A stretch of 46,908 bases of DNA from a virus (lineage: Duplodnaviria; Caudoviricetes), in the IMG/VR virus record IMGVR_UViG_3300028581_002462, positions 1-46,908 of that record; one strand, given 5' to 3'. A model generated the notes under the pieces. The model had not been told where the DNA came from. It did no database searches and saw only the letters and a list, made by a program, of their open reading frames with translations. Below are positions 8,182-35,883 of the stretch, one piece after another. Both the position numbers and the translations under genes were made by a program. Position 1 is the stretch's first letter, and each line of letters opens with the position of its first letter.

Positions 8182-8328
8182 GATGATTACAGTTTTAGAT
8201 AAAAAGTTAGGTAGAGTAGGAAAAGATGGTTTAAAATATTCAATAAGAGGAGAAAAACAATCTGGATTACCTAAGAAATTTAAAGTACTACCAATAAAAT
8301 TAAATATTAGATTTAAAAAAATGAAGTA

Positions 8329-8992: not shown

Positions 8993-9868
8993 ATGGTATG
9001 GAATAAAGGATTAAAAATTTCTGAAGAAACTAGAATAAAAATAAGTAATGCAGGTAAAGGAAGAAAATGTTCTCAAGAAACTAAAAATAGAATGGCTATA
9101 TCAAAGATGGGAGATAAAAATCCTATGAAAATATTAGAAGTAAGACTTAAAAGTAGTTTATCTAAAAAAGGATTTAAACATACAGAAGAGCATAAAGAAA
9201 AAATAAGAAATATTGCAGCTAATAACCCAAATTATGGTATGAAAGGAAAACATCAATCTAAAGAATCAAGAATAAAAATAGGTTTAGCTAGTATTGGTAG
9301 ACACGTATCAGAAGAAACAAGAAAAAAATTAAGTGAAGTAAATAAAGGAAGAATATTTTCAGAAGAACATAAATCTAATCTTCGTAAATCAAAACAACAC
9401 ATATCTGAAGAAACAAAAATAAGGATGAGAGAAAATCATCCTAGAGCAATGCTAGGTAGACATCATACAGAAGAAGCTAGGAGAAAAATAGGATTAGCAG
9501 CACGTAATATATCTCAAGACACAAGAGATAAAATGAGTATCTCTCATAGCGGAGATAAGACAAATTTTTGGAATGGGGGAATATCATTTGAACCTTATTC
9601 AATAGAATTTAATGAAAGATTTAAAGAAGCAATAAGAATTAGAGATAATTGTTGTATGATTTGTAATAGTAATGAAAAAAAAGGTAGAAAATTAAATGTT
9701 CATCATATTGATTATAATAAATTAAATTCTACTAAAGAAAATTGTATTGCTTTATGTGATTCTTGTCACGCAAAGACTAATAATAATAGAGAGCAATGGA
9801 TAACTTTTTTCCAGTCATTATTAAGTAAAAAATATAAATATATTTATGTAGAGGTAATTAAAATATGA
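8993..9868 (+). CDS. NUMOD3-repeat HNH homing endonuclease
   Basis: Multiple (H/V)SEETRxK repeats; C-terminal CxxC...VHHIDY...N...LCxxCH. Confidence 0.9.
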   Translation: MVWNKGLKISEETRIKISNAGKGRKCSQETKNRMAISKMGDKNPMKILEVRLKSSLSKKGFKHTEEHKEKIRNIAANNPNYGMKGKHQSKESRIKIGLASIGRHVSEETRKKLSEVNKGRIFSEEHKSNLRKSKQHISEETKIRMRENHPRAMLGRHHTEEARRKIGLAARNISQDTRDKMSISHSGDKTNFWNGGISFEPYSIEFNERFKEAIRIRDNCCMICNSNEKKGRKLNVHHIDYNKLNSTKENCIALCDSCHAKTNNNREQWITFFQSLLSKKYKYIYVEVIKI

Positions 9869-12800
9869 AACTAGCAGTTGTTTTCCTTCTATCTTTATTT
9901 TTAACTTTAGGAATAGTTGGAACAGTTTCTGCTTCTCCTTTTGGTTATGATATTGAAAATGGATTAGGTGGTTCTTCAACAGCACCAATCACAGTAGTAA
10001 TAAACCAAACCACAACAAACGTAAACAATTCAGATTATCTTAATGGACACGATTCTTCTTATTTCTATCCAGCTTCTAATCCAGATGGATTTATAGACGA
10101 TGGAAACACAGGTTGGGATAATTTATATGGATTTATAACTAACGCAGTAAATAATTTAATAAACTATTTCACAAAAACAGAAGTAAATGATATGATTGCA
10201 GGAAACTTCACAGCATTAAATAATTCTATTACAAATATTTCTTTAACTCCAGGACCACAAGGAATACCAGGAGTTAATGGAACTAATGGATATACTCCAG
10301 TTTATGGAGTAGATTATAGAAATGGAACTGATGGTACAAATGGAATTGATGGTGTAAACGGAACAAATGGAATTAATGGTGTTAACGGCAGTGATGGTTA
10401 TACTCCAGTTTATGGAGTAGATTATAGAAATGGAACTGATGGTTATACTCCACAATATGGAATAGATTATGTAAACGGAACAAATGGAATTAATGGTGTT
10501 AACGGCAGTGATGGTTATACTCCAGTTTATGGAGTAGATTATAGAAATGGAACTGATGGTATAAACGGAACTAATGGTGTTAATGGTAGTAATGGTATCA
10601 ATGGAACATTCACAGATATACTTAACTCAACTCAATTTTATAATCAATCAACAACTTGGAGTTTAAATCTTACTTGGCTTACTTCAATATTTGATACAAT
10701 CTATTTGAAAATATCTGATATGTTTACTAAACAAGAAATAACAGATATGATTAGTGGTAATTATACAGAGCTTAATAATTCTATCACAAATATTTCTTTA
10801 ACACCTGGACCACAAGGACCTCAAGGAATACCAGGTATAAATGGAACTAATGGTATTAATGGAAGTCAAGGACCACAAGGTATCCCAGGAGTTAATGGAA
10901 CTGATGGTTATACTCCACAATATGGAATTGATTATGTTAATGGAACAAATGGAATTGATGGTGTTAACGGTATTAATGGTGTTAATGGTTCTGACGGATA
11001 TACTCCTCAATATGGTATTGATTATGTTAATGGAACTAACGGCATTAATGGAGTTAATGGAACTAATGGACAAGATGGTATCAACGGAACTTTCACAGAT
11101 ATATTAAATTCAACTCAATTTTATAATGAAAGTAATGTTTGGAGTTTAAACTTATCTTGGTTCAATTCCGTTTATGATTTAATTTATTTAAAAATATCAG
11201 ATATGTTTACTAAGCAAGAAGTTAATGATATGATTGCAGGTAATTATACAACATTAAATAATTCAAAACTAAATATTGGCGACCAAAGATATAATGATAG
11301 TGCTAAGGCAGATTACAACTTCACAACTAATAACTTTAATGGTAACGGAAACTTTAATACTTCAGGTAATATAACAACAACAGGTTATTTAATGGGGCAA
11401 CCATTACTTGGAATGTTAGGTTCAGGTATTATTCAATCAACTGAAACAAATCCTTTAAGTGAAGTTAATGTAACTTGTTCAGGATTAAATTGTTCTTATA
11501 ATGCTTTTGAAGTTAGATTAGTTAGTGGAACATCAAATCAATTTGCTACATATTGTAAAATACCTGCAAGTAGTATGGTAGTTACAGATAATAATCATAT
11601 AGTTTTATATGTAGATAGTAATTGTGCTATTCAATCTACAACTATTGAAACTTGGTATGGAGGAACAATACAAACAGGAGGATTATGGGATTTTGCTAAT
11701 ACTGTTTGTTATAATGGGGCTTGTGAAGTAAGTAATGGAATTGGACTTGAACAAAGGAGAATGATGAAACAAAGAGTATTAGACTTTAATGAAATGCATT
11801 TAAAGGTTGTTAGTGGACTTGATAAACAAATAAGCACATTCCCCGGATTTAATATAACATCAGGTAAATATATTTATTTAATGGATGTTGTTACAACTGC
11901 TCCAGTTAATGCTAATCAATCAGGAACTTTAGAATATATTTATCATAATTCAAGTATGGCTAGTGGATGGACAACAGTAGATACATCAGGTATACAATTA
12001 ACTAAATGTGATAATGGAACTAATTTAGTAACTTGCACTGGAAATAATTGGAGAAGATATTTTATTTATATGGTTGGTTGGAATGAAACAGGTAAGACAA
12101 CAAGTGGAGTCCATCAAACTGCCGCATTACTTGGAACATCTTATTCTTCTTTAGCAAATTGTTTAGATACAAATCTTAATCCTCTAGTTTACAATCTTCC
12201 ATCTTGGTATGTAACAAGTGCAGTGCCTCTTTATGCTTATTGTGCGAGAAGAACAGATACAGCAACACAATGGTTATCAGCTAACTTTATTGATTTAAGA
12301 ACTGTTAAAACAGGTTCATCTTCAACAAGTGCTTTAGAAACTGACCCAGTATGGACAGCAGAAAAGGTTAATTATTATACTGCTAGTCAGATAGATGCTA
12401 ATAATTGGAACTCTACTTATAATGCAACTTACGATGCTACAACTCAAAATGTAAATGCTAATCAATCAAATTGGTTTAGTAAATATAATGCAAGTTATTT
12501 AACAAGTTCTTACAATACTACATACGATGCAACTAGTGCTGATGTAAGTGCTAATAGAACTAATTGGGAAAGTAAGTATAACAGTTCATATTTAACAAGT
12601 TCTTATAATGCTACTTATGATGCTACAACTTCACAATGGAATGGTAATTATACAGCATCTAGTAAATATTGGTATAATATGACACCTACTACATTTTACA
12701 ATTCAAGTTATTTAACATCTTCATACAATGCAACTTATGATGCTAAGAATACTTCATCAATAAAATCTATTAATACAACTCAATTCTCAACTGATAGTAA

Positions 12801-13446
12801 TGGAGTATTAAATCTAATTGAAAGTTGGATTAGAGGAGTTATAACAGGTTATGGATATTTAACAAGTTCAGCTAATACAACTTATAGTGCAACAAGTGCT
12901 GATGTAAGTGCTAATCGTTCTGCTTGGTTTTCTACTTATAATGCTTCTTATATGACTAATACTTATAATTCTACATACGATGCTACAACTTCTCAATGGA
13001 ATGGAAACTATACTGCATCTAGTAAGTATTGGTATAATATGACTAATAATATATTTTATAACAGTTCATATTTAACAAGTTCTTATAATGCTACTTATGA
13101 TGCTACAACAAAGAATGTAGATGCTAATTATACAACTTGGGAAAGCACATATAATAGTTCTTATCTAACATCTTCTTATAATTCTACTTATCATACAACA
13201 AGTTTAGATCTTACAGCAAATAGAACTGCTTTCTTATCAACTTACAATAGTTCTTATCTAACATCTTCTGCTAATACAAGTTACTTATTAAAAGCAGGAG
13301 ATAGTATGACTGGCAATATAAATATGACTACAAAGAATGTTACTAATTTAGGCTATATCAAAATAGATAGTATTGGTAATGCTCCTTGTGAACCTACAAG
13401 TGGAAATATTTGTAGAAATGCTAGTGGTATGTTCTTATATGGATAA
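9865..13446 (+). CDS. Secreted collagen-like, sequon-rich fibre/adhesin
   Basis: Sec-type signal peptide; GPQG and G(I/V)NG(T/S) triplets; Cys-containing beta domain; C-terminal YNSSYLTSSYNATYDAT repeats. Confidence 0.85.
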   Translation: MKLAVVFLLSLFLTLGIVGTVSASPFGYDIENGLGGSSTAPITVVINQTTTNVNNSDYLNGHDSSYFYPASNPDGFIDDGNTGWDNLYGFITNAVNNLINYFTKTEVNDMIAGNFTALNNSITNISLTPGPQGIPGVNGTNGYTPVYGVDYRNGTDGTNGIDGVNGTNGINGVNGSDGYTPVYGVDYRNGTDGYTPQYGIDYVNGTNGINGVNGSDGYTPVYGVDYRNGTDGINGTNGVNGSNGINGTFTDILNSTQFYNQSTTWSLNLTWLTSIFDTIYLKISDMFTKQEITDMISGNYTELNNSITNISLTPGPQGPQGIPGINGTNGINGSQGPQGIPGVNGTDGYTPQYGIDYVNGTNGIDGVNGINGVNGSDGYTPQYGIDYVNGTNGINGVNGTNGQDGINGTFTDILNSTQFYNESNVWSLNLSWFNSVYDLIYLKISDMFTKQEVNDMIAGNYTTLNNSKLNIGDQRYNDSAKADYNFTTNNFNGNGNFNTSGNITTTGYLMGQPLLGMLGSGIIQSTETNPLSEVNVTCSGLNCSYNAFEVRLVSGTSNQFATYCKIPASSMVVTDNNHIVLYVDSNCAIQSTTIETWYGGTIQTGGLWDFANTVCYNGACEVSNGIGLEQRRMMKQRVLDFNEMHLKVVSGLDKQISTFPGFNITSGKYIYLMDVVTTAPVNANQSGTLEYIYHNSSMASGWTTVDTSGIQLTKCDNGTNLVTCTGNNWRRYFIYMVGWNETGKTTSGVHQTAALLGTSYSSLANCLDTNLNPLVYNLPSWYVTSAVPLYAYCARRTDTATQWLSANFIDLRTVKTGSSSTSALETDPVWTAEKVNYYTASQIDANNWNSTYNATYDATTQNVNANQSNWFSKYNASYLTSSYNTTYDATSADVSANRTNWESKYNSSYLTSSYNATYDATTSQWNGNYTASSKYWYNMTPTTFYNSSYLTSSYNATYDAKNTSSIKSINTTQFSTDSNGVLNLIESWIRGVITGYGYLTSSANTTYSATSADVSANRSAWFSTYNASYMTNTYNSTYDATTSQWNGNYTASSKYWYNMTNNIFYNSSYLTSSYNATYDATTKNVDANYTTWESTYNSSYLTSSYNSTYHTTSLDLTANRTAFLSTYNSSYLTSSANTSYLLKAGDSMTGNINMTTKNVTNLGYIKIDSIGNAPCEPTSGNICRNASGMFLYG
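10230..11260 (+). repeat. Collagen-like repeats within a ~0.5 kb internal duplication
   Basis: GYTPVYGVDYRNGTD x3, GYTPQYGIDYVNGTN x3; TDILNSTQFYN...IYLKISDMFTKQE occurs twice. Confidence 0.9.
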
Positions 13447-13448
13447 AA

Positions 13449-15914
13449 ATGGTAAATAAAAAGTTTATTATATTTGGTATAGTAAGTATTTTATTAATAG
13501 GATTTTTAACTTTTGTTTATGCACAAGAGTTTTCTACAATAGATAAAACTTATACTAAAACTCCAACAGCTGATTTATCAACATTCATTAAAGAAGATTT
13601 TAATACAAAATATGGAGCTATTACTTTATCTGATAGTGCTAAGATTGGAGAAAAGAAAATGGCTGAGTTCTCTTTAATAAGTAATACTGAAAAATGTTTA
13701 GATAAATGTTTCCAACATTATAAAGCTACATTATATCAGCCAATGAGTTTATTTGATAAGGTAGATTATAATATTTTACAAGGAGAAGGTAGTTTAAGTT
13801 CTATTCCTAAAGTTACAATAAAGTATAATGAAACATATTATGAAGAAGTAATAGATAAGATAATGGAGAAATGTGAAGATATTTCTAATAAAACATTTGA
13901 AGGAAAATATTGTTATAACATTACTTTAACTACAAAAAATATAACTAAGACTAGAGATAGTTGGAAAGAATATAATGGAGAGATTTTACCAATAGGTAAT
14001 TATGAATACCAAATTACTGGAAAGTTAGAAAGAAACCAAATAATAGATGTTGTTCAAACTACAAGTAATAAACAATTTACTGAATGGACTACTTGGACTG
14101 CATCAGATTGTATTGGTATTGGAGGAACAATAACAATAGATGGAGATTATTGTGTTCATACTTATTTAACAAGTTCTAGTTTTAATTTAACAACAACTAA
14201 TTCTATAAATGCAACAGTATTAGTTGTAGCAGGTGGAGGAGGTGGAGGTTTTGATTTAGGAGGTGGTGGAGGAGGTGGAGGTTTAATATATACTATGTCA
14301 GTTAATGTAAGTGCTAATACTACTGTATCAATTGGTTTAGGTGGAGGACCTGCATCAGCAACTTCAATGAGTGGTTATAGAGGACAAAATTCTTCTTTTG
14401 GAACTACTATTGCATTGGGTGGTGGTGGAGGTAAATCAAGAAGTGGTATTGTTCAAAGCACAGGTGGAAGTGGAGGTGGAGGTTCTTATGCACAGGCATT
14501 AGGAGCATTAGGAACTGTAAACCAAGGTAAAAATGGTGGTAATTTATCTGCATCTTATGGTTGTGGAGGAGGTGGAGGAGCAGGTGCACTTGGTGGAACA
14601 AGTGGAAGTGATAGTGGAGGAAATGGTGGAGTTGGTTTAGCATACACAATTAATGGAACATCAAATTATTATGCAGGTGGTGGAGGTGGAGGTGCAGGTG
14701 GAGCAGGTAGTAGGTCAGCAGGAGGACTAGGGGGTGGAGGTGCAGGTGGTAAGGATGCAGTTGCAGGAGTTAGTGGAATTAATGGAACTGGAGGAGGAGG
14801 AGGAGGAGGTGGTTCAAGTGGAGCTCAAGGAGCAGGAGGAAGTGGAGTTGTTATTGTAAGATATTTAGCAGGTTATCCAAATATTGTAGTAACTATGAAT
14901 TACCCCTTAGATAATCAAGTATATACAAATACAAGTCAATTATTTAATTGTTCAGCTTTTAATACAACAAGATTAACAGTTCAAGTTTGGAATGATACTA
15001 TTATAAATGGTTTAGTAGCATATTATGATTTTGAAGAAACAAGTGGGGTTAGATTGAAAGGTTGGAATGGTGTTAATAATGGTTCAAATAGTGGAGCAAC
15101 AATAAGTCAAAGTAGTAAATTAGGTAATAGTTATTTGTTTAATGGTAATAAATATGTAACAATTAATAATACTCCACAGTTAAGTATTGCTAATAATGCA
15201 CCTATGACTATTTCTGCTTGGGTAAATGTTAGTAGATTTCCAGTTAATAATAATTGGGGAATGATAGTAGGCAAAGATCACAATGTAGCAACATCAACAT
15301 CTCCTTATGAATTTAGAATACAGAATACTTCAGGATTAAATTTAGTATATTTTGGAGCTTATAATGGAAGTGATTTTTCAACAACTTGGAATAGTGGAAC
15401 AGGATTAACCGATAAGGACTATCATAATTTAGTAGGACAATATAATGGAACTGCTTGGTTAATTTATTATGATGGAGTTTTAAAGAATTTTACTGCTAAT
15501 GCTTTTGGACCTAAAGTTAATGCTCTTAATGTAAGTATCGGAGCATTTTTTATTAGTGGAGCTTATGCTAGGTTTTTTAATGGTTCAATAGATGATGTTG
15601 GTATTTGGAATAGAAGTTTAAGTGCATCAGAAGTATTAGATATATATAATGATGGTAATGCTTCAAGAGGTTTAATTACAAGATACTCTAATTCAAGTGC
15701 AATAGACGGAGATTATGTTTATACAGATAGTTTAGCTGTTGGGCAACATTATACTAGATGTATTTCTAGAAATTCAGTTGAACAAATGAATACAACATCT
15801 AAAATAAGTTTTAATATAACTTCAGCAGTTACTAATTGTTGGACAAAGACATCTACACTTTTATTTATTCCAACTGGATGTGTTTATAATATTGCGAGTG
15901 GGGGAATGGGATGA
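13449..15914 (+). CDS. Exported Gly-rich plus LamG-like adhesin
   Basis: Signal/TM; VVAGGGGGG...GGSGVVIVRY Gly-rich domain; LamG hallmarks TISAWV, YHNLVG, FNGSIDDVGIWNRSLS. Confidence 0.85.
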   Translation: MVNKKFIIFGIVSILLIGFLTFVYAQEFSTIDKTYTKTPTADLSTFIKEDFNTKYGAITLSDSAKIGEKKMAEFSLISNTEKCLDKCFQHYKATLYQPMSLFDKVDYNILQGEGSLSSIPKVTIKYNETYYEEVIDKIMEKCEDISNKTFEGKYCYNITLTTKNITKTRDSWKEYNGEILPIGNYEYQITGKLERNQIIDVVQTTSNKQFTEWTTWTASDCIGIGGTITIDGDYCVHTYLTSSSFNLTTTNSINATVLVVAGGGGGGFDLGGGGGGGGLIYTMSVNVSANTTVSIGLGGGPASATSMSGYRGQNSSFGTTIALGGGGGKSRSGIVQSTGGSGGGGSYAQALGALGTVNQGKNGGNLSASYGCGGGGGAGALGGTSGSDSGGNGGVGLAYTINGTSNYYAGGGGGGAGGAGSRSAGGLGGGGAGGKDAVAGVSGINGTGGGGGGGGSSGAQGAGGSGVVIVRYLAGYPNIVVTMNYPLDNQVYTNTSQLFNCSAFNTTRLTVQVWNDTIINGLVAYYDFEETSGVRLKGWNGVNNGSNSGATISQSSKLGNSYLFNGNKYVTINNTPQLSIANNAPMTISAWVNVSRFPVNNNWGMIVGKDHNVATSTSPYEFRIQNTSGLNLVYFGAYNGSDFSTTWNSGTGLTDKDYHNLVGQYNGTAWLIYYDGVLKNFTANAFGPKVNALNVSIGAFFISGAYARFFNGSIDDVGIWNRSLSASEVLDIYNDGNASRGLITRYSNSSAIDGDYVYTDSLAVGQHYTRCISRNSVEQMNTTSKISFNITSAVTNCWTKTSTLLFIPTGCVYNIASGGMG

Positions 15915-15936
15915 AAATAGTATCCCTATAGAGAGA

Positions 15937-15951
15937 CGAAACATTTATTAA
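15937..15951 (+). promoter_or_regulatory. Archaeal BRE/TATA promoter
   Basis: cGAAAcaTTTATTAA ends about 25 nt before ATG 15977. Confidence 0.6.
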
Positions 15952-15976
15952 CCAGGTTTACTTAAGAAAAATAACA

Positions 15977-16726
15977 ATGAAATTTGCAAATACATTTATT
16001 TTTTGTATGCTTTTGTTAGTAATTATACCGTCTATATCTGCAACTACTGGAAATCTTGGAACATTTAAACAAAATGAATGTATAAATCTTTTACAAACTT
16101 GTGCTGATTGTACTTATAATAATATTACTTCTGTTACTATAGGACAATATAGTACTAAATTATTAGGATTAACTTCTATGGAAAGATCAGGGACAATATT
16201 TAATTATACTTTTTGCGATACATTAGTTCCAGGAATATATACTGTTGATGGATATGGAAATCCAGCAGGAACAAAAACAATTTGGAATTATAAATTTGAA
16301 GTAACTGCAACAGGACAAGATTCTACCGTTAGTAAGTCAATAACTTATGTTTTATTATTTATATTTTCAATTATTATATTCGGAGGATTAGTTTATATGG
16401 GAATTGGTATTCCATATAGCAATAAGACAGATGAAATGACTGGTTATGTATTGGCTGTTTCAAATATTAAATATTTAAAATTAACTTTATTAGGTTTATC
16501 TTATGTAGTTGCTGTATTTATAGCATATTTTTCTTGGATGTTAAGTTATGCTTATCTTGATATGGACTTCTTATCTAGTATATTACAATTTTTATTTTAT
16601 GGTCTTGCGGTATTATTAGTTCCAATATTTATTCTGTTTGTTTATTTAATAATTGCTAATCTAGTTAGAGATAGTAAAATAGCAGAAGCATTACAAAGAG
16701 GTTTTACAGTAGATGGTAAAGAGTAA
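15977..16726 (+). CDS. Membrane protein with exported beta domain and three TMs
   Basis: Signal peptide, Cys-containing beta domain, three C-terminal hydrophobic helices. Confidence 0.8.
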   Translation: MKFANTFIFCMLLLVIIPSISATTGNLGTFKQNECINLLQTCADCTYNNITSVTIGQYSTKLLGLTSMERSGTIFNYTFCDTLVPGIYTVDGYGNPAGTKTIWNYKFEVTATGQDSTVSKSITYVLLFIFSIIIFGGLVYMGIGIPYSNKTDEMTGYVLAVSNIKYLKLTLLGLSYVVAVFIAYFSWMLSYAYLDMDFLSSILQFLFYGLAVLLVPIFILFVYLIIANLVRDSKIAEALQRGFTVDGKE

Positions 16727-17498
16727 TACTTGGATGTTAAAAGCTCCAATACAACTAAAAGAAAGATTAGATAAAGTTAGAATAGAGAGAATAAAGAATG
16801 GAAAAGACAAACAAATGACAACCTATAACAGATTATGTTTAGCAATGTCCAGACATGAAGCATTATTAAATGATTTAGCAACAGCAGATTTTATTAAGGA
16901 TAAGAGGGGACAATTAGGAGGACAAGAAGCAGGAGGTTCAGTATTTAGTATATTTCAATTTATGATTGTTGCATTTTTAGCTATTGTTATGTTCGCAGGT
17001 ATGATTTATGTTCAAGGAGAACTTAATATTTTATTTCATGATGTTGGAGTTATGAACGATCAAAATAATCCAGGTAAAAATTCTACTGATGGTTCTGGAT
17101 ATGTTAATATGACGTTAGCAGCAGATCAGACTTTTGGTGAAGTAAATAAATCTATTCAAGCATTACGTATGGTGGCCTTAGTTTATATTTTAGCGTTAGC
17201 TATTAGTATTATAATTACAAATTTACTTATAAGATTACATCCTATATGGTTCTTTGCATACATGTTAATTTCACTCTTAGCAATTGTATTTTCAGTACCA
17301 ATATCCAATTCTTATGAAGTATTAAAAAATACAAATGTATTTGTAGGTAGTGATGGAAGTGGTGGTTTAGCTTCATTTGTTGGAGCAAATTTCTTCATGG
17401 AATATCTACCAATTTTAGTTTTAGTTATAAGCATACTTGGTGGAGTATTTTTATTTATAAATTTGATAAGATCTGGACAAGAAGGAGAATTTAGATAA
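16713..17498 (+). CDS. Four-TM protein with internal KRG|Q class III-like site; possible minor capsid protein
   Basis: Soluble 66-aa N-terminus ending DKRG|QL, then two helical hairpins; LAADQT resembles LAANQT in the 111-aa capsid candidate. Confidence 0.7.
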   Translation: MVKSNTWMLKAPIQLKERLDKVRIERIKNGKDKQMTTYNRLCLAMSRHEALLNDLATADFIKDKRGQLGGQEAGGSVFSIFQFMIVAFLAIVMFAGMIYVQGELNILFHDVGVMNDQNNPGKNSTDGSGYVNMTLAADQTFGEVNKSIQALRMVALVYILALAISIIITNLLIRLHPIWFFAYMLISLLAIVFSVPISNSYEVLKNTNVFVGSDGSGGLASFVGANFFMEYLPILVLVISILGGVFLFINLIRSGQEGEFR

Positions 17499-17499
17499 A

Positions 17500-20400
17500 A
17501 TGGTAAAAAAACAAGTTATATTCGGAAAAATGGCTTTATTTAGCTTGATTACAGCAACTTTAATTATGTTTATGATATTTAATATGGTGGTAGTTTCAGC
17601 ACAAGAAATAATTAAAGAAGATGATGGAAAAGTTGGTGTTTCAGATATAATTATTCCAACAAATGCATTAACTGATAGAGCTGGAAATAGTTTAGATAAT
17701 ATTAAAGAGTTTACTAAAGATATTGAAATGGAATATGGTAAAATTGATATTAAAAATAGTTTCTTATGGTTTTTACCAACATCTACTATTGAAACAATTG
17801 AATTAAAGAAAAATACTAATATTTGTGGACAATTTTGTTCTGCTGAAAAAGAAATAACAATCTATACTGATACTAAGTTAATTGATAGTATTAAGTTTAT
17901 GAAATTAGAAGATAATGGAAATTGGGTTAGAAGTAATATAAGAAATTATAAATTTTATATTAGAAGTAAACAAACTCCTTATGAAGTTGAAGATACAAAG
18001 TGGGTATGCAAAGATACTGGATTTATAGATGAGAAAAATGGAAGTGCTATACAAGATTGTTCTAATCAAGTAGTTGGAAGTCATACTGAATACGAAGATA
18101 GTTGGATAGAATATAATTATGAAGTTATGCCTACTGGAACTTATTATGTTAAATTAGAAGGGGAGAAAAGACCTGAGTTTACTTATGATTGGATAATTAC
18201 TTCACAAGGTAAAGAGATTAGTGAATGGAGTGTATGGGGAAGTAGTGTTTTAGCAACAAGTTCTCAAGCATATTATAACTTTGATGGACAGGGTTCATTA
18301 TTAAATGAAAATGGTGCTTTTAATTTAACTGCTGGGAAAGTTGGAACTAATGGAGTATCTACTTATGGAGTATCTGGTTATTCTGATAATGATTCTAAAG
18401 TTAGTTTTAATGGTGTAACAACTGCATCTTATACTTTTTGGTTTAAAGGAACAGGGCAATCTAAACAAATGATGGGAATGGGAAAAGGTGGAGGTAATCA
18501 AGGATTTTATATACAAAATGATGCAGTTAATAGATTACAAGCTTGGGCTAGAAATAGTGCTGATAATTATGCTTTTATAACTCCTGCTAGTTTATATGAT
18601 GGTAACTGGCATCACGTTGGAGTTATTTGGGATATTACAAATGCTACGACAAATAGTAGAATAAGATTCTATATTGATGGAGCTTTAGATATAACTGGTT
18701 ATTCAAGTGGTTGGAATAATCAAACTGCGATTAATACTGGAGCTGGAGTATTTTATCTAGGTTCAGATTATTTAGCAGCTAATAATTATGATGCAATATT
18801 TGATGAAGTTGGAGTATGGAATAAATCATTAACACTATCAGATATTACTACATTATATAATTCTGGAACTGGTTTAGCTTATCCTTTCTCTTCTTCAATA
18901 ACATTAAACTCTCCAGTAAATAATTATGGAACAAATATAAGTTCAATTAATTTTAATTGTTCTTCATCAACAGTTGGAGCAACTTTAGTTAATATGTCTT
19001 TAATGTTTAATAATGCTATAAATCAAACATTTTCAAAAACTGGAACAACAAATAATTCAATATTTACAAAATCTATGTCTGAAGGGCAATATAATTGGAC
19101 TTGTCAAGCTTGTGATAGTGATGGAGTTTGTAGTGGTGGAGAAAATAGAAGTGTATCAATTGATACTACTGCTCCAAAAATATCATTAATATATCCTGCA
19201 TCAGTAGTTAATTATGCTTATTTAGGACAAAATATTTCGTTAAATTATTCTATAACTGATTTAAACATTAATACTTGTTGGTATAATTATAATGGTTCTG
19301 ATAAAGTTATACCCTGCACAGCTAATTCAACATTTATATTAACTTCGCAGAAGAATATGACTATTTATGCAAATGATACTGCTGGTAATTTAAACAGTTC
19401 ATTTTTTAGTTGGGATTATAGTATATTTGAAAATGTATTAAGTTATAGTAAATCTACAATTGCTGGAAGTACTGAAAATTTTATATTTAATATGACTCCT
19501 AGTACAATATACACTTCCATATCTCCATTTTTGATATATAATGGAACTTCATATACGATGGATTATTCTGGAGGAGTATATTCAAAATCTATTATTATTC
19601 CAAATATCGCACCTAGAACTAATAATACTTTTTATATTTCAACAATACTTTCAAATTCATCTGGAACTATAACCATAAATAGTACATTGTATACTCAAAA
19701 TATTAGTTCTTTATTAATGGATAATTGCTCATTATATACAAATAAAGTAATTAGTTTTAATATGGTTGATGAAGAAACATTAGCTAATATCTCTGGAACA
19801 ATTAATGTTTTAGCAAAATTCTATTCATTAGATAGAAGTATTTTAGTAAATACATATAATGGTACATTAAATTATGATGGAGTTACTCCAGTATCAATAT
19901 GTTTAGCTAATTTAACTTCTCAATATTCATTAGACTATGTAACTCAATTTTATAGTAATCAATCTTTATATTTTATAAAATATAAATCAATGCAAAATTT
20001 TGTATTATCTAATTTGACTTCTGGACAAAATATAACTCTTTATGATTTATTATATAATTCAGGTAATATATTTCAATTGAGAGTAAGAGGATTATCTGAC
20101 AATACAAATGTATTAGTGGATATACAAAAACAATATTTATCAAAAAGTGAATTTATTTCAACTGAAAGTTATATCTCAGATAGCGATGGTATAGCTATTG
20201 GACATTTAGTTACTTCTAGTGCAGTTTATAATTTTGTTTTATCAAGAAATGGGGTAATTTTAGGTAGCTTCAATAATTATCAGGTAAAATGTAATAATGC
20301 TATAACTGGTGATTGTTATGTAATATTAAATGTTTATGATTCTTCAATATTATTACCTAATTTTAAAAGTTATGGAAATATAGATGGAGCATTTACTTTA

Positions 20401-20883
20401 GTTAAAGCAACTAGAACTTTACAATTTACATTTTCAACTACAGATGGACAAGCACATACAGTAGATCAACAGATAGTTAAGTTTGGCGGTTCTAGTAATA
20501 TTACTATATGTAATATATCTACATATGGAACTTCTGGAACTTTAACATGTGTTATTCCTGAATCTTATGGAAATACTACATTTATGGCTAGAACTTATGT
20601 ACATTCTGATAAATTATATATTAATACTTATATATTTTCTTTTGGTAAAAATCCAAATTTTACAGGTGTTGAAGTTTTATTAGAAATGTTATTATATTCT
20701 ACTTTAGTATTAATGTTTTTATCTGATCCTATACTTGTAATACTTGGAGCAGTATTAGGATTTACATTAGCAATGGTATTATTATTCTTAGGAAGTGATT
20801 CAACTATTACTATAATATCTACAGTAATATTCTTTATTGCAGCAGGTGCAATAATTATAGCTAAGCTAGGGAGGAGAATGTAA
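17500..20883 (+). CDS. Large LamG/Ig-like adhesin with C-terminal TM anchors (candidate tail/spike protein)
   Basis: Signal peptide; N-terminal domain similar to that of 13449-15914; LamG motifs WHHVGV and DEVGVWNKSL; three C-terminal TMs. Confidence 0.85.
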   Translation: MVKKQVIFGKMALFSLITATLIMFMIFNMVVVSAQEIIKEDDGKVGVSDIIIPTNALTDRAGNSLDNIKEFTKDIEMEYGKIDIKNSFLWFLPTSTIETIELKKNTNICGQFCSAEKEITIYTDTKLIDSIKFMKLEDNGNWVRSNIRNYKFYIRSKQTPYEVEDTKWVCKDTGFIDEKNGSAIQDCSNQVVGSHTEYEDSWIEYNYEVMPTGTYYVKLEGEKRPEFTYDWIITSQGKEISEWSVWGSSVLATSSQAYYNFDGQGSLLNENGAFNLTAGKVGTNGVSTYGVSGYSDNDSKVSFNGVTTASYTFWFKGTGQSKQMMGMGKGGGNQGFYIQNDAVNRLQAWARNSADNYAFITPASLYDGNWHHVGVIWDITNATTNSRIRFYIDGALDITGYSSGWNNQTAINTGAGVFYLGSDYLAANNYDAIFDEVGVWNKSLTLSDITTLYNSGTGLAYPFSSSITLNSPVNNYGTNISSINFNCSSSTVGATLVNMSLMFNNAINQTFSKTGTTNNSIFTKSMSEGQYNWTCQACDSDGVCSGGENRSVSIDTTAPKISLIYPASVVNYAYLGQNISLNYSITDLNINTCWYNYNGSDKVIPCTANSTFILTSQKNMTIYANDTAGNLNSSFFSWDYSIFENVLSYSKSTIAGSTENFIFNMTPSTIYTSISPFLIYNGTSYTMDYSGGVYSKSIIIPNIAPRTNNTFYISTILSNSSGTITINSTLYTQNISSLLMDNCSLYTNKVISFNMVDEETLANISGTINVLAKFYSLDRSILVNTYNGTLNYDGVTPVSICLANLTSQYSLDYVTQFYSNQSLYFIKYKSMQNFVLSNLTSGQNITLYDLLYNSGNIFQLRVRGLSDNTNVLVDIQKQYLSKSEFISTESYISDSDGIAIGHLVTSSAVYNFVLSRNGVILGSFNNYQVKCNNAITGDCYVILNVYDSSILLPNFKSYGNIDGAFTLVKATRTLQFTFSTTDGQAHTVDQQIVKFGGSSNITICNISTYGTSGTLTCVIPESYGNTTFMARTYVHSDKLYINTYIFSFGKNPNFTGVEVLLEMLLYSTLVLMFLSDPILVILGAVLGFTLAMVLLFLGSDSTITIISTVIFFIAAGAIIIAKLGRRM

Positions 20884-21374
20884 TGGCAAGTGGACTTAGG
20901 CCTTTTTATGAAATATTTATTTGGTTTTTATTATTTACATTTTTTGTAACAATATTTGTAGTTTCATTTTTATCATTACAAAATCCAACTTCAGATTTAA
21001 TAGTTAATGATAATTATGGATTTAATAAATCTATTAATATGCTTAATCAACAAATGGGTAATTTTACTACTTTTGCTAATACTACTCAAACTAAATTAGG
21101 AGAAGCAAAGCCTGATCCATTACAATTTGTATTCCTTATGTTTGAATCTGCATTTTATATTCCTCAATTATTTTTAGGTATTATATCAAGTTCTATAGTA
21201 GCAATGACTACTTTATTATTTAATTTTGGTGGTGGGGATTTATCTAAGAATCCTTTTGTTTCAACAACAGTAGGACTTTTATCAATGGTAATGTATATAA
21301 TATTTGCAGTATTAACTGTAAGAGCAGTTTTATATATCATCAAAGCAGTAAGAACTGGGGAGAGTGAACGTTAA
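20883..21374 (+). CDS. Membrane protein of the virion module
   Basis: Three hydrophobic segments; NKS, NFT and NTT sequons. Confidence 0.75.
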   Translation: MASGLRPFYEIFIWFLLFTFFVTIFVVSFLSLQNPTSDLIVNDNYGFNKSINMLNQQMGNFTTFANTTQTKLGEAKPDPLQFVFLMFESAFYIPQLFLGIISSSIVAMTTLLFNFGGGDLSKNPFVSTTVGLLSMVMYIIFAVLTVRAVLYIIKAVRTGESER

Positions 21375-21819: not shown

Positions 21820-22155
21820 ATGTTTAAAAAATTACTTAATAACATCAAAGCAGTTTTCGGCTTAACAGCTGTTCAACAGTTCTTTGCTGTAATATTAGGT
21901 ATAGCTCTTTTAGCTTATGTAATTGTTATCATAATGGGAACATTATCCAATGCTTCAATTGTACCAACTGGCAGCTTAGCTGCTAATCAGACAAATTCAA
22001 TCTTGGCTAATGTATCTACTGGAATAACAGGGTTCTTCTCTGCTATCAATCCAGTTTATGCAATTCTAGCTATCCTAGTTATTATCCTAGTATTAGTTGT
22101 ATTAGTAAGAGTTGTTCAAGCTCCATCTAGTGGTGCTGCATCACCTTCTTTGTAA
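21820..22155 (+). CDS. Putative major capsid protein, spindle-virus-type hydrophobic hairpin
   Basis: Basic leader ending KA|VFGL; two long hydrophobic helices with an N-X-S/T-bearing linker; own promoter, SD and terminator. Confidence 0.7.
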   Translation: MFKKLLNNIKAVFGLTAVQQFFAVILGIALLAYVIVIIMGTLSNASIVPTGSLAANQTNSILANVSTGITGFFSAINPVYAILAILVIILVLVVLVRVVQAPSSGAASPSL

Positions 22156-22176
22156 GGTTCTCTAACTAATAGAATT

Positions 22177-22229
22177 GTCAGGAACGCTGACCTGCCGTTT
22201 CTAACTCAAGCAGGTTAATTTTATTTTTC
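22177..22229 (+). terminator. Hairpins plus T-tract after the capsid gene
   Basis: gtcag/ctgac and cctgc/gcagg stems followed by ttaatttttattttt. Confidence 0.5.
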
Positions 22230-22278
22230 GGAGTTGACAGAATCTCCCTACACAAAACTGTCACCTTATATTTACAAA

Positions 22279-22452
22279 ATGCCACTTAACAGAATGGGAA
22301 GAAAAATTGAAAGAGAAATGGGAGAGCATAGTTGTAAAAAATCTTCTAAATCACAATTAGTTCTTTATGGAAATAGAGCAAAAATGAGACATATGTTTAT
22401 ACATTTAAATAAAGAGCATCCTTCTTTAAAAGGACATATGAAGCTTAAATAA
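22279..22452 (+). CDS. Small basic protein
   Basis: MPLNRMGRKIERE..., K/R/H-rich; ATG 22279 preferred over TTG 22234. Confidence 0.55.
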   Translation: MPLNRMGRKIEREMGEHSCKKSSKSQLVLYGNRAKMRHMFIHLNKEHPSLKGHMKLK

Positions 22453-22472
22453 GTACTGAAAAGGAGGTTTAA

Positions 22473-23075
22473 ATGAAAAAAATAATAAATCTCAACAAAG
22501 ATAAACGAGGAATTTTCGGTTTAACAGCTGTTCAACAATTTTTTGCAATAATTTTATCAATAGCTTTACTGGCTTATGTAATTGTAACTATTATGGGTAC
22601 ATTATCTAATGCTAATATTGTTCCATTAAATACTGTAGCTATGAGTGGAAGTGTTGCTAATGAAACTTTAACATCCGTTACTGAAGATTTACATTATGTT
22701 TCCAAGTCTACATTACCTAATTTTGATATGACGGTTTGTATAACTTGCGTACTTAATGCCACAAATAATGTTGTCATTCCTGCTGCTGATTGGGGATATA
22801 CTGGTCCTGGTGGAGTAAGAGTAACTAATTCTACAAGTATATTTAATAATACTAATTGGAAAGTAAGTTACACATATACTTACACTGCTGACAGTCCACA
22901 AGTAGCAAATGCTAATTCAATATTAGGAAATGTCTCAACAGGTATCACTGGCTTCTTTGGAGCAATCAACCCAGTATATGCAATCTTAGCAATATTAGTA
23001 ATAATATTAGTTTTAGTTGTATTAGTAAGAGTTGTTCAAGCACCAAATGGAATAAATGAATCTGCCTCGTTATAA
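22473..23075 (+). CDS. Capsid paralogue with inserted beta-rich domain
   Basis: Leader KRG|IFGLTAVQQFF; both helices nearly identical to 21820-22155; ~90-aa insertion in the loop. Confidence 0.75.
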   Translation: MKKIINLNKDKRGIFGLTAVQQFFAIILSIALLAYVIVTIMGTLSNANIVPLNTVAMSGSVANETLTSVTEDLHYVSKSTLPNFDMTVCITCVLNATNNVVIPAADWGYTGPGGVRVTNSTSIFNNTNWKVSYTYTYTADSPQVANANSILGNVSTGITGFFGAINPVYAILAILVIILVLVVLVRVVQAPNGINESASL

Positions 23076-23156
23076 AATCATTTTAAATTAGGCCTTTTAT
23101 TTTTCAGGCCTTTTCATACTCACAATAATCAACTCTCAAAAGGGAGGTAAATAATA

Positions 23157-23285
23157 ATGAAGTCACAAACTCAAAAATCTAAAAAAATGTTACATGAAAT
23201 GCATAGAGGAGATACTGTATTAAAAAGTGCATTTAAAGGAAGTAATTTATATATGAAACGAGCTATTATGAATCCAAATGAATAA
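23157..23285 (+). CDS. 42-aa basic protein
   Basis: SD GGAGGT; MKSQTQKSKKMLHEMHRG... Confidence 0.55.
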   Translation: MKSQTQKSKKMLHEMHRGDTVLKSAFKGSNLYMKRAIMNPNE

Positions 23286-23379
23286 ATGGATGTTGCATTT
23301 AAGCAAGGTTAGGAAAGCTAATCCAAAAATTAAGAATGTTGCAGCAATTGCAAAATTAGCTAAGAAAACATATAAGTAA
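23278..23379 (+). CDS. 33-aa basic peptide, HMG-box-like pattern
   Basis: MNKWMLHLSKVRKANPKIKNVAAIAKLAKKTYK*. Confidence 0.6.
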   Translation: MNKWMLHLSKVRKANPKIKNVAAIAKLAKKTYK

Positions 23380-23436
23380 TTCTTTTTATTATTTTAAAAT
23401 AGAAACATTTAAATAGTTGTTACTATTCTATTTCTT

Positions 23437-23565
23437 ATGAAAATACAATTCAAAGAACTTTCTATTCCTTTGAAAATTGCTATAGTATTTGGATGGATTG
23501 CAGGATCAATATATGCTCTTGCTTTTATATCTGGATTCTTAGAAGGAATTTTTAGTACAGTTTAA
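23437..23565 (+). CDS. 42-aa single-TM protein with own TATA promoter
   Basis: gaaacaTTTAAATA upstream; MKIQFKELSIPLKIAIVFGW... Confidence 0.55.
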   Translation: MKIQFKELSIPLKIAIVFGWIAGSIYALAFISGFLEGIFSTV

Positions 23566-23573
23566 AATTTAAT

Positions 23574-24035
23574 TTAACTATTAAATTTGTAAAACCAATA
23601 AACTAAATAAGTTAATGTAATTGCTGGTAAAAATGGTACTTCTTTTCCTTTAAGCAAAACTTTTGCAAATAATCCATAGATTGTTCCAATTATTAAGAAA
23701 AATATTAAGAAAAACCACATACTAACCATTGTATTTGCAAATCCTTGAGTTAAACCCATAAAAGCAATAATTCCTGGTAAAATCTTAACATCTGCACCTC
23801 CAAGTACTCCTCTGTTCCATAGGAATAGGGCTAAAACGAACATAAGCACTGCAAGAGTGAGATTTAACCAAAACTGTGGTGAAATACACATCCATATCAA
23901 AGATAGGGCTAGAAACAAGAATATTGGCTTATTTTCAATTTCAGATTTCTTGTAATCAATGTAAGTAAAATAACATAAAGCTCCAGCTCCTAAAAGAAAT
24001 GAAGTATTGCTTATTATTGTAATTATATCTATCAT
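23574..24035 (-). CDS. A24-family prepilin/prearchaellin peptidase
   Basis: Polytopic membrane protein with first Asp in YIDYK, GGADVK motif and C-terminal VPFLPAI. Confidence 0.9.
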   Translation of the reverse strand: MIDIITIISNTSFLLGAGALCYFTYIDYKKSEIENKPIFLFLALSLIWMCISPQFWLNLTLAVLMFVLALFLWNRGVLGGADVKILPGIIAFMGLTQGFANTMVSMWFFLIFFLIIGTIYGLFAKVLLKGKEVPFLPAITLTYLVYWFYKFNS

Positions 24036-25216: not shown

Positions 25217-26050
25217 TTATTTGTTTAAATCAAATAATTTCAAGATACCATTAGCGTTATCTCCAAGTATTACTTTGGAATTATTCTTTAATGCTTCTCC
25301 AGCAATTTCAAATTGTTTTAACTTCTGAGCATTACCTTTAAAATATTTGTCAGCAGCTTCATTTACAATCTTAATTTGTTTAGCAGTAGCATCAGCAACA
25401 ATAATTCTTCCCTGTGCAATACCTTCAGCTTCTTTGATTGCAGCTCTCTTTTTACCATCAGCTTCTGTTTCAAAAGCAGTAGCAAAGTCAACAGCAGCAG
25501 TCTTTTCGTTTTCAGCTTTAATAACTCTATTCATAGTTTCTTGAACATCGCTAGGAGGAGTAATTTCTTTTAATTCAACTCTAACAATGTCTACGCCCCA
25601 AGTTTTAGTTTGTTCAGCCATTACTTTAGCTAATTTAGTATTCAAATCGTTTCTTTTAGAGTTAACATCTTTGAAAACCATATCGCCAATAACATTTCTA
25701 GCAGTTGTTTGTGCTAATGTAATAATCTGACTTTCATAGTTATTTACATTATACAAAGCTTTTTGAAAACTATCCTCGTCACTTCTAACTTTATAGAAGA
25801 TAACTAAATCTGTACGAGCATTTAAGTTATCTGAAGTTATAATGTCCTGTGGTTCTACGTTTGCCATTTGTTCAGTAACATTTACTTTTCTCATGTGCTG
25901 AAATATTGGTATAATCCAACTAAATCCTGGCCCACGATAAGAAGTATATTTACCTAATGTTTCAACCGCAGCTCGTTCTGTTTGATTAACAATTCTTATT
26001 CCACTTAAACCTATAAGTAGTAATAAACTAATAATAATATATTCTATCAT
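25217..26050 (-). CDS. SPFH/Band 7 (stomatin/prohibitin-like) protein
   Basis: TM plus GIRIVNQTERAAVETLGKY, TTARNVIG, WGVDIVRVELKEITPP and AE-rich coiled coil. Confidence 0.93.
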   Translation of the reverse strand: MIEYIIISLLLLIGLSGIRIVNQTERAAVETLGKYTSYRGPGFSWIIPIFQHMRKVNVTEQMANVEPQDIITSDNLNARTDLVIFYKVRSDEDSFQKALYNVNNYESQIITLAQTTARNVIGDMVFKDVNSKRNDLNTKLAKVMAEQTKTWGVDIVRVELKEITPPSDVQETMNRVIKAENEKTAAVDFATAFETEADGKKRAAIKEAEGIAQGRIIVADATAKQIKIVNEAADKYFKGNAQKLKQFEIAGEALKNNSKVILGDNANGILKLFDLNK

Positions 26051-26693: not shown

Positions 26694-27059
26694 TCATTCT
26701 CTCAATCCCTCCAAAGTCTTTATTTCTTCTTGGACCTGTTTATGTTCTAATTTAGTAAAACTTAATCTTCCTTTAGTTACTGAATAATAATTATCTGGAG
26801 TTTTAGCTAAACACATATAACCAAAAATCCAAGTTAAATATTCTTCTTCATTAATAATGGTTCTTAAATAATATTTCTTTTCATCTATTAATATTTGGAT
26901 TTGGGCTTGGCGTATCTTTTTACATTGAGGACATAAGATTAAAGCTTCTCTTATAATATCTCCACAATTACCTTCAAATGGTTCTGGAGAAACAGTTTTA
27001 CACATTCCTTGTAATAACTTTCCACATCCTTGAGGGGATAAGATTGATTGATGTATCAT
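26694..27059 (-). CDS. Hypothetical Cys-rich protein
   Basis: GCGK...CG...LCPQC; ATG overlaps the upstream methyltransferase stop. Confidence 0.65.
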   Translation of the reverse strand: MIHQSILSPQGCGKLLQGMCKTVSPEPFEGNCGDIIREALILCPQCKKIRQAQIQILIDEKKYYLRTIINEEEYLTWIFGYMCLAKTPDNYYSVTKGRLSFTKLEHKQVQEEIKTLEGLRE

Positions 27060-27637
27060 TTTGAGTTCTCCTGAAAGGTTTGCTCTTTCAACTCCATCAT
27101 TTCTGCTTGGGAGGAATGCCGTGCTTCAGATTGCATAGCTTCCTGCTTGACCTCCTCTGGAATTTTAATAAAGCAAAACCAGTTAGTCGGTATTTTACTC
27201 CCATTAGGATGACCAAATAAAGGTTGTTCTTTCAAAACTTCTAATATCTCTTTTCTTTTTATACTGCTTTCGTTCCACTTGAATATTAAAATACCCCAAT
27301 CCTCTAAAACTCGCATACATTCATCAAATCCCTTTTTAATATCTTCTTTCCAAGTTTCTTTATTAAGAGTTCCATAAGTTCTTGTCATCCTACATCCATC
27401 TGGTTTTCCAATTAAATGAGGCGGGTCCATCACAACTAATTTAAAACTTTTATCAGCAAATTCTAACTTTCTGAAATCCATAATCATATCAGGATGTAAT
27501 TCTCTATTCTGCCTGTTATCTATAAATCCTTTATCATACTCACGATTATCTATAAAAATTGTATTTGGTTGCCTTTTATCAAACCAAAACATTCTGCTTC
27601 CACAACAAGCATCCAATATTTTTTTGTTTGTTTCCAT
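27056..27637 (-). CDS. SAM-dependent (probable amino-DNA) methyltransferase
   Basis: ILDACCGSRMFW motif I; DPPH motif IV; LIFKW. Confidence 0.88.
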   Translation of the reverse strand: METNKKILDACCGSRMFWFDKRQPNTIFIDNREYDKGFIDNRQNRELHPDMIMDFRKLEFADKSFKLVVMDPPHLIGKPDGCRMTRTYGTLNKETWKEDIKKGFDECMRVLEDWGILIFKWNESSIKRKEILEVLKEQPLFGHPNGSKIPTNWFCFIKIPEEVKQEAMQSEARHSSQAEMMELKEQTFQENSK

Positions 27638-27678
27638 AGTTCGTTAAGATACCCTACCCTTTAGGGTATGGGAGTATG
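27056..27678 (-). mobile_element. Non-autonomous IS200/605-end-flanked cassette 2
   Basis: Left hairpin catactcccataccctaaagggtagggtat before the ATG; cggcattcctcccaagc near the 3' end. Confidence 0.75.
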
Positions 27679-28254
27679 TCATTTCTTCTCCTGAAAGGTT
27701 TGCTCTTTCAACTCCATCATTTCTGCTTGGGAGGAATGCCGTGCTACCTCTATAAAATTTAGTTGATTAGGTAAACTAAGTTTCCAACAGAACCAAGCAG
27801 TTTGAAACCAAGCTCCTGAACCTTTGCCTGAAGGAGTTTCAAAATTAAATCTCTTATTAGGAATTATTAAACTTATTCCATATTTTCTATAAAGTTCTCC
27901 TCTTTTCTTTCCTTCTAAGGCTGTTAAAGGCATAAGCAAAGCAAAAGGTTTTCCTATCTCAAAACATCTCTGTAAAAATTCTTCTTTTTTTGAATATGGG
28001 GGATTAGTTACAATACAATTAAATTCTTCTTTGTTTAATCCTAAATCTTTATTCAAAAAATCTTTAAATGGTTCTCCAATAACTTTGAAACCTTCTTTTT
28101 CTAAGTGTTTTGCTAAACTGCCTTTTCCCCAAGCACATTCCCAAAGAGTCCAGTCTTTCTTTAGATAAGGCAATAAAATATCTATTGCTTCTTTTGGAGT
28201 TCCAAACTCGTCACTCCTTCCATTCATCTGTATTTTAAGTTTTTTCTTTTCCAT
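27679..28254 (-). CDS. N6-adenine-type DNA methyltransferase
   Basis: DEFGTP, WECAWGKG, TNPPYS; paralogue of 41922-42484. Confidence 0.88.
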   Translation of the reverse strand: MEKKKLKIQMNGRSDEFGTPKEAIDILLPYLKKDWTLWECAWGKGSLAKHLEKEGFKVIGEPFKDFLNKDLGLNKEEFNCIVTNPPYSKKEEFLQRCFEIGKPFALLMPLTALEGKKRGELYRKYGISLIIPNKRFNFETPSGKGSGAWFQTAWFCWKLSLPNQLNFIEVARHSSQAEMMELKEQTFQEKK

Positions 28255-34857: not shown

Positions 34858-35883
34858 TTATAGCCCCTCTTCCTCTTCTTCTGGGCCACAATCATCAATT
34901 TGTTGTCCCTCTACCATAGTAGTAATATTGATGGTGTCAGCAGAACCTTCAAAACCTTCATTTCCTAGAGAATTCTCTTCAATTTCTGGCTTTTTATCAA
35001 TTTTACTCCATCTTTCCACAGTTCTTACACTAACTCCCAAAGCTTTTGCCCAATCTTCAGCACATTCAATCTTTAAATCTTTTATATTGTGTCTAAGCTT
35101 TCCAAATGCTGATTTAAAATTATTAAAATCTTGTTCCATCTTGCTTTCCTTCTTGCCTTTCACTTCATCTACCTTTCCAATTGAATTAATTGCCAGATCT
35201 TTCTGATGATGATAGTCTTTCATGGTAGCATGAGGCTTACCCTCCACGGAAAAGTCCATTAAGTCAAAGTATTTATCCATAACTTCTGGAAAATGTCCAC
35301 GAAAGGCAGTACATTTTTTATAACTTCTTATCTTTGCCTTCATATAATCATTCCAAAGTGTCTCTAAGCTTTTCTTTTTAATATAAACAAACCTTCCCAT
35401 ATCAATTTCATCTTTAGAATACATATGAACCATTCCTAAACATCTATCAACCACAATATACTCTCCAAACTTCCAGAACTTAGTGAAGTTTATTATAAAC
35501 ATATGCTGTCTCTTTCTAATTGTCATAGCCAACCTTAAAAGATCTCTACCAATTCTTTTTAATTGATCAGTAGATAAAGAATCTAATGAAGGTTCATCCC
35601 AGATCATGATTTGTTTCTTAGTTCTTTGTGCATGATTGATTAATGCTTGAAGCCTAAAGAATATATGTGCATCTCTACCTGTCTTTTGTTTAACATAATT
35701 GGCCATAGCAACGGCAGAATTACTCTTACCAGATCCCTCAGAGCCTTCCACTTGTAACCATGCATCTAATACTGGAGTCTCTCGTGTTATCCTTTCAATC
35801 ATTATATCTAGCTTCTTAACCAATTCATTCTCTAGATTATAACTGTAACCATTACATTGTATTAACATTTTGTTTCTCCTCAA
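34858..35883 (-). CDS. P-loop ATPase with C-terminal HTH (candidate morphogenesis ATPase)
   Basis: Walker A GSEGSGKS; Walker B IMIWDE; IRKR; HTH WAKALGVSVRTVERW. Likely ATG start at 35868. Confidence 0.85.
   Translation of the reverse strand: MRRNKMLIQCNGYSYNLENELVKKLDIMIERITRETPVLDAWLQVEGSEGSGKSNSAVAMANYVKQKTGRDAHIFFRLQALINHAQRTKKQIMIWDEPSLDSLSTDQLKRIGRDLLRLAMTIRKRQHMFIINFTKFWKFGEYIVVDRCLGMVHMYSKDEIDMGRFVYIKKKSLETLWNDYMKAKIRSYKKCTAFRGHFPEVMDKYFDLMDFSVEGKPHATMKDYHHQKDLAINSIGKVDEVKGKKESKMEQDFNNFKSAFGKLRHNIKDLKIECAEDWAKALGVSVRTVERWSKIDKKPEIEENSLGNEGFEGSADTINITTMVEGQQIDDCGPEEEEEGL

Follow-up and report, generated by a model that had tools for sequence, protein, structure and literature searches.

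The question raised by this locus is what a prepilin-type peptidase gene does next to two genes for paralogous membrane proteins in a viral genome. The locus lies in the IMG/VR record IMGVR_UViG_3300028581_002462, which was analysed over its whole length of 46,908 nt (hereafter, the window). The first bases of the AT-rich window recur in a terminal direct repeat at 46773–46908, and the element is therefore circular, with a genome of ~46.8 kb (~46,772 bp). Its genes include those for a primase-helicase, a tyrosine integrase, methylases and HNH nucleases; the plus strand carries a long cluster of membrane and lectin proteins with two hairpin paralogues at its end. The upstream structural cluster (13449–20883, plus strand) is common to relatives and includes, by Pfam, two large concanavalin A-like (Laminin_G_3) proteins (13449–15914 and 17500–20883); also within the structural cluster is a 1193-aa protein with a signal peptide and collagen-like repeats (9865–13446). 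Elsewhere, we noticed three DNA methyltransferase-like ORFs (27056–28254 and 42080–42484); ORFs 27056 and 27679 share the terminal peptide ARHSSQAEMMELKEQTFQE, which suggests a duplicated 3' segment. An IS200-like TnpA transposase (41362–41922) has no adjoining TnpB-sized ORF. Both matches to the genome collection in the capsid-alignment search lie in Woesearchaeota bins, and the host is probably a Woesearchaeota-like archaeon. Judging from the genes alone, we put at roughly two in three the probability that the element is a spindle-shaped virus whose adjoining A24 peptidase would cut the class III leaders of the predicted coat hairpins after Lys/Arg-Gly/Ala.

The paralogues are a small hairpin protein of 111 aa, the probable major capsid protein (21820–22155, plus strand), and a large one of 200 aa, a probable second capsid protein (22473–23075, plus strand). 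Identity between the two is 63% in the first 64 alignment columns and 85% in the last 53. Both have two hydrophobic segments, and the large paralogue has an insertion of ~85 aa in the loop between the same two helices. In the small protein this loop contains the N-glycosylation sequons N44, N56 and N64, and at least two N-x-S/T loop sequons occur in 119 of 120 homologues, which are the best of 347 found at E <= 0.001. AlphaFold, supplied with 66 sequences, modelled the small protein as two long helices (residues 2–44 and 53–100; pLDDT 85.7, pTM 0.60). A fold search had been proposed in the first-pass annotation; with Foldseek, the small-protein model matched generic hairpins only, the list including a two-helix archaeal conjugative pilin at an insignificant E of 6.1. 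Small basic ORFs, possibly DNA-binding, lie between and after the two genes (22234–22452 and 23157–23285); the ORF between the paralogues in the relative L001 (10688–10897) matches DUF5661, whereas those of the window match nothing. Among relatives, three tandem capsid-like paralogues are found in L029 (2–1492) and L045 (9986–11453), and a single capsid-like gene in G002. Also, six proteins of 390–930 aa (P0157, P0179, P0180, P0184, P0222 and P0266) end in a capsid-type second helix, and two of the six also open with a leader and first helix; such proteins appear to have large domains inserted into the hairpin loop.

Small hydrophobic two-helix hairpins with sequons in the loop are the build of spindle-virus capsid proteins, and the element combines the capsid gene and the circular genome with a P-loop ATPase (34858–35883, minus strand) resembling the morphogenetic AAA+ ATPase of spindle viruses. 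Indeed, when six-frame segments of five known viruses were searched with the profile of this ATPase, the AAA+ ATPase of TPV1 (E 4.5e-5) and ORF16 of His1 (E 0.004) were matched with modest scores. The major capsid protein of SMV1 (7RO2) was the fifth PDB match of the small-homologue profile (E 0.054), and the nearest named Atlas clusters were VP1_VP3 (0.84, with 29% of members carrying the family) and the His1 capsid (0.82; 62%), both at the level of leads. Direct comparison of the small family with SSV1 VP1 by hhalign gave no significant alignment (probability 1.7%). The hairpin layout is shared with SMV1 7RO2, His1 ORF21 and TPV1 ORF 8215–8553, and tandem paralogous two-helix hydrophobic proteins with loop sequons are found as VP1/VP3 in fuselloviruses (SSV1, SSV19; PF06281). 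An AAA+ ATPase with two paralogous capsid proteins is also described for the spindle viruses of Nanohaloarchaeota (DNSV-1/2, which have an integrase as well) and of Asgard archaea (Wyrdviridae) in the available part of bioRxiv 10.1101/2025.02.15.638363; unlike the present element, they are described there without the words "peptidase" or "signal peptide".

The weak sequence links to capsid proteins would also be compatible with a mobile element that is not a virus and that uses a prepilin peptidase of its own to mature the hairpins as pilins for a pilus or a conjugative channel; two-helix archaeal conjugative pilins do exist, and the insignificant Foldseek match is one of them. We consider this very improbable: no Pfam family for an ATPase or platform protein of type IV pili or of conjugation was found in 44 proteins of the window and 47 proteins of two complete relatives, while TPV1 and His1 are matched by the ATPase profile, the paired paralogues with an AAA+ ATPase fit the spindle viruses described in the preprint, two lectin proteins are described for Thermococcales spindle viruses (PMC12934983, excerpt), and two relatives are themselves IMG/VR records. 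These lines of evidence converge, each of them modest, and the element is probably a spindle-shaped archaeal virus, known here from its genes alone; from architecture and gene context, we infer that the paralogues are its capsid proteins.

The first-pass annotation had pointed out that the basic leaders of the two paralogues end in KA↓V and RG↓I, and the ORFs and their alignment bear this out. The small protein begins with MFKKLLNNIKA↓VFG, the cut being predicted between A11 and V12 (nt 21852 and 21853), and the large paralogue with MKKIINLNKDKRG↓IFG, where the cut is predicted between G13 and I14 (nt 22511 and 22512). Both leaders are short and basic, as had been claimed; that they are unrelated is true only loosely, with BLAST still aligning them. 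On the profile alignment of the small homologues, the site is covered in 119 of 120, with Gly or Ala at -1 in all 119, [KR][GA] in 111 and invariant Phe, Gly and Leu at +2, +3 and +4 (119/119), while position -6 is highly variable; the motif is thus kept while upstream leader positions change. A more diverged set was taken as the best 150 of 266 representatives, of which 68 had gaps and were left out, most of them being long-insertion forms, fragments or fusions; in the 82 aligned over the site, [KR][GA] occurs in 76, Gly at +3 in 73 and Gln at +1 in 19. The large paralogues (34 distinct, 33 anchored) have [KR]G in 30 of 33 and Gly or Ala at -1 in 33 of 33. As a control for chance, [KR][GA] was found just before the transmembrane segment in 3 of 26 ORFs of the window with an early membrane segment, and these three (both paralogues and ORF 16713) all belong to the structural cluster and have in common a basic leader or domain, [KR] at -2, [GA] at -1 and then a retained hydrophobic helix.

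When the PDB was searched with a diverged profile of 66 small homologues, the top four matches were archaellin precursors (E 0.003–0.04), with the cleavage sites in register. PibD-type enzymes cut before a hydrophobic domain that the mature protein keeps (PMC6098224, excerpt), and the predicted precursors resemble pre-archaellins and type IV prepilins in the basic leader, the K/R-G/A site, the Gly at +3 and the hydrophobic helix in register. They differ in that a second hydrophobic helix takes the place of the globular beta domain, and the build of type IV pilins and archaellins (one N-terminal helix and a globular domain, with an assembly ATPase and platform) was not found here. The published PibD consensus, (K/R)(G/A)↓(L/I/F)(S/T/A), is matched before the cut and departed from after it, where V-F follows in the small protein and I-F in the large one, i.e., Phe at +2 in both and also the +1 residue in the small protein; a natural deviation from the consensus, RG↓MT, is on record (PMC7347861). 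On these sequence features, the capsid leaders very probably undergo class III processing by some A24 peptidase.

Other proteins of the cluster carry similar sites. The product of ORF 16713–17498 (plus strand) spans the membrane several times and contains a class III-like site in its interior, KRG↓Q (G66 and Q67; nt 16910 and 16911), preceded by a basic domain of ~65 aa; among 20 distinct homologues, 18 have [KR][GA] and all have Gly or Ala at -1, two rows having been read by eye. It is likely a third substrate, and its cleavage by the same A24 would free the basic N-terminal domain into the cytoplasm. The basic domain is fused before the site in the window, L002, L037, L052 and L055, and many other relatives encode it as an ORF of its own. 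The conserved membrane protein encoded at 20883–21374 (plus strand) has no leader in the window, and many of its homologues have, by eye, a KK[GA] or KRA leader before the same start; the leaderless ones, as in the window, start near the predicted mature N-terminus.

In terms of a mapped cut, the known example is SSV1 VP1, in which KLTKG precedes the residue before helix 1; the mature protein starts at that Glu (E66), right after KG, and the protease was unknown as of 2017 (PMC5748691, Iverson et al., excerpt). Deletion of the five residues upstream of the cut abolished infectivity, whereas the E66Q and E66A mutants were still infectious with many abnormal particles (same excerpt), and we infer that this pattern fits an enzyme reading -2 and -1; the word "pilin" is absent from the available part of that paper. 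The SSV1 +1 residue, like that of the present small paralogue, falls outside the PibD consensus (PMC7347861). We found [KR][GA]↓E in all nine translated fusellovirus VP1s, chosen from 60 records, and in SSV19 VP1, so that a variable leader ending in [KR][GA] is common to fusellovirus VP1 and the proteins studied here, while most VP3s start without a leader; the present element differs in having leaders on both paralogues and V/I, not E, at +1. Also, a TPV1 candidate (ORF 8215–8553; E 3e-5 in a set of 22 proteins) has RRRG↓S before helix 1. In contrast, the capsid candidates of SMV1, His1 and PAV1 have no [KR][GA] motif, and no A24 was found in any of the five known viruses searched (SSV1, SMV1, His1, TPV1 and PAV1). 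The Arg-rich N-terminus, not resolved in the SSV19 structure, is proposed as a probable DNA binder, and no cut is reported in the available part of the paper (PMC9351363), which counts against universal cleavage. A pibD mutant resists SSV9 (PMC7217056, excerpt); this resistance acts at an early step and hence has no bearing on maturation.

The leader might then be a topology signal, a DNA-binding tail like that proposed for SSV19, or the target of a protease other than A24, with the adjoining peptidase a coincidence, and the Phe at +2 and the absence of the motif from several spindle-virus capsid proteins speak for it. Such a reading is nonetheless improbable, given the invariant small residue at -1, the archaellin cut sites in register, the same motif in unrelated proteins of the cluster, the leaderless ORF 20883 homologues that start near the mature end, and the mapped SSV1 cut exactly after KG.

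The peptidase itself is encoded at 23574–24035 (minus strand) and is a miniature A24 (prepilin-type, GxGD-like) aspartic peptidase of 153 aa, matching PF01478 (Peptidase_A24) with E 1.7e-10 and 41.7 bits, over a curated cut-off of 26.5. The earlier description of a compact A24 with both Asp motifs converging on the cluster is thus confirmed: Asp27 lies in YIDYK (nt 23955–23957) and Asp82 in GGADVK (nt 23790–23792), and the gene is convergent with the capsid cluster, ending 499 nt after the large paralogue. Both aspartates are invariant in 12 aligned compact homologues, in which the second motif is GGAD. The sole PDB match of the peptidase profile was FlaK (3S0X, E 0.006), with which both aspartates and the last helix line up while a long intervening part is missing in the viral enzyme; the two aligned FlaK aspartates are those we take to be catalytic. 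In comparison with FlaK, PibD and EppA (PF01478), the viral enzyme has the two aligned aspartates, the GGxD-K motif, the N-terminal helices and the last helix, but at 153 aa is shorter than both the FlaK chain (237 aa) and its cellular relatives from the candidate host class (263–350 aa). The large insert, central to C-terminal, is missing from the viral enzyme, which is also encoded by a virus, stands on a separate branch, and has predicted substrates with two helices and Phe at +2. A SPFH/Band 7 (stomatin-like) membrane protein (25217–26050; PF01145, E 1e-37) is encoded near the peptidase on the same strand.

A profile search, in which 8000 candidates were scored, retrieved 22 clusters at E <= 6.5e-19, followed by a gap to 2e-5. 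Within the candidate host class (the class of G003), 55 of 151 genomes have A24 matches, nearly all of them longer cellular enzymes; the best of these cellular A24s reaches E 2e-13, whereas the compact copy in G003 scores 7e-49. A tree was built from 13 compact (140–156 aa) and 29 cellular (263–350 aa) sequences, one cut-off cellular row of 131 aa being left out. The compact peptidases all fall to one side of a single branch, which has a support of 92/83 and carries long-branch warnings; five of these 13 have no genomic context. By sequence, the peptidase is assigned to a miniature A24 subfamily that is apparently virus-linked.

The association with capsid genes was followed in 82 loci from the capsid-alignment searches, most of them short and including the best 80 of 94 stretches of a metagenome scan, which were merged at 95% DNA identity. 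A peptidase near capsid genes was found in 10 non-redundant loci (the window, L024, L025 (partial), L029, L037, L052, L069, L074, L079 and L081), nine of them convergent and eight within 1.1 kb; L029 and L081 have it at 3.2 and 7.2 kb, respectively. The mutual identity of the locus peptidases compared is only 28–53%. All 10 loci have Gly or Ala at -1, with Glu at -2 in L052 and L081, and a locus with the peptidase but no such leaders, the case named beforehand as refuting the idea, was not seen among them. Conversely, leaders do occur without the peptidase: 19 merged loci extend at least 4 kb further downstream, and seven of these have the gene and 12 do not, some of which could carry it beyond the sequence examined. 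The complete genomes G001 (its first 40 bases are found again at 30,072) and G002, which is 25 kb long and has terminal repeats and a CheckV estimate of only 54%, match neither PF01478 nor the viral profile and have no protease family among their 47 scanned proteins, and KG leaders are kept in both. The G001 sequence is a head-to-tail repeat of a ~30-kb genome, and a tRNA-Met is found in it (L087, 5343–5416). Absent from 12 of 19 informative loci, including two complete genomes with leaders, the viral peptidase is therefore accessory, and the default processing enzyme is likely the host PibD/FlaK.

It could then be supposed that host PibD/FlaK cuts the leaders in all members, the viral A24 being redundant or acting on host pilins and archaellins in receptor remodelling or superinfection exclusion. 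Besides the leaders without a viral peptidase, the cellular A24s in the candidate host class, the position of the gene at the end of an opposite-strand block of variable small genes, and the five changes that its presence needs on the weakly supported capsid tree (mean after shuffling, 7.5; 29/500 as low) are consistent with this. We find it unlikely all the same, since even peptidases this diverged are still encoded next to the capsid genes, three motif-bearing substrates are encoded in cis, and atypical sites concentrate in peptidase-bearing loci: small-capsid sites other than [KR]G were found in 4 of the 8 loci with the peptidase and in none of the 12 without it (Fisher p 0.014), a weak hint in that the comparison is post hoc and the genomes are related, not independent. 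A non-canonical CG site is found in the large paralogue of the peptidase-lacking L034. Peptidase distances correlate with those of the small paralogue (rho 0.52, p 0.012; 7 loci) and not with those of the large one (rho -0.01). Maturation by the virus's own enzyme, as the first-pass annotation proposed, is thus favoured by the conserved class III-like leaders, both aspartates and the recurrence beside capsid genes in divergent relatives, and is qualified by the 12 of 19 loci without the gene.

In the maturation by the viral A24 that we prefer, the precursor would sit N-in in the host membrane, kept there by its basic leader; both helices would be inserted and the sequon loop would face outwards. 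Cleavage by the membrane aspartic protease ahead of helix 1, at the cytoplasmic face, would then take away the positive charges, and the mature hairpins would leave the membrane pool for the helical shell of the virion during budding, probably driven by the viral ATPase. Relatives without the gene would use the host PibD/FlaK, and the viral A24 may be an accessory that secures or relaxes processing. The general mechanism, by host or virus, would be class III processing.

No such role had been described to the knowledge of the first-pass annotation, and our literature search agrees within its scope: in full-text literature, with few subscription papers and no supplements, no link of prepilin peptidases to capsid maturation and no virus-encoded prepilin peptidase was found; the search also took in passages of PMC6563490, PMC13705601, PMC10791045 and PMC7911016. 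Supplementary annotation tables may already list such genes.

In conclusion, the prepilin-type peptidase gene and the matching cut sites of the neighbouring capsid-like proteins argue, at the level of the genome, for one particular class of enzyme and provide a testable candidate for the maturation enzyme of spindle-virus coats, the SSV1 VP1 protease having been unknown in 2017 (PMC5748691, excerpt); the question can be tested in Sulfolobus with the existing pibD mutant. Taking the broader view, we lean only slightly towards class III signal processing as capsid maturation in a large part of the spindle viruses, with PibD as the SSV1 VP1 protease, a Woesearchaeota-linked family that has domesticated a prepilin peptidase of ~150 aa, and an assembly that takes over from type IV pili the principle of a membrane pool and leader removal. 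If true, a membrane aspartic protease would join the known viral maturation proteases, the compact peptidase would offer a minimal enzyme for structural work and its site a motif for finding divergent capsid genes, and the assembly of spindle viruses would be linked to the biogenesis of type IV filaments.
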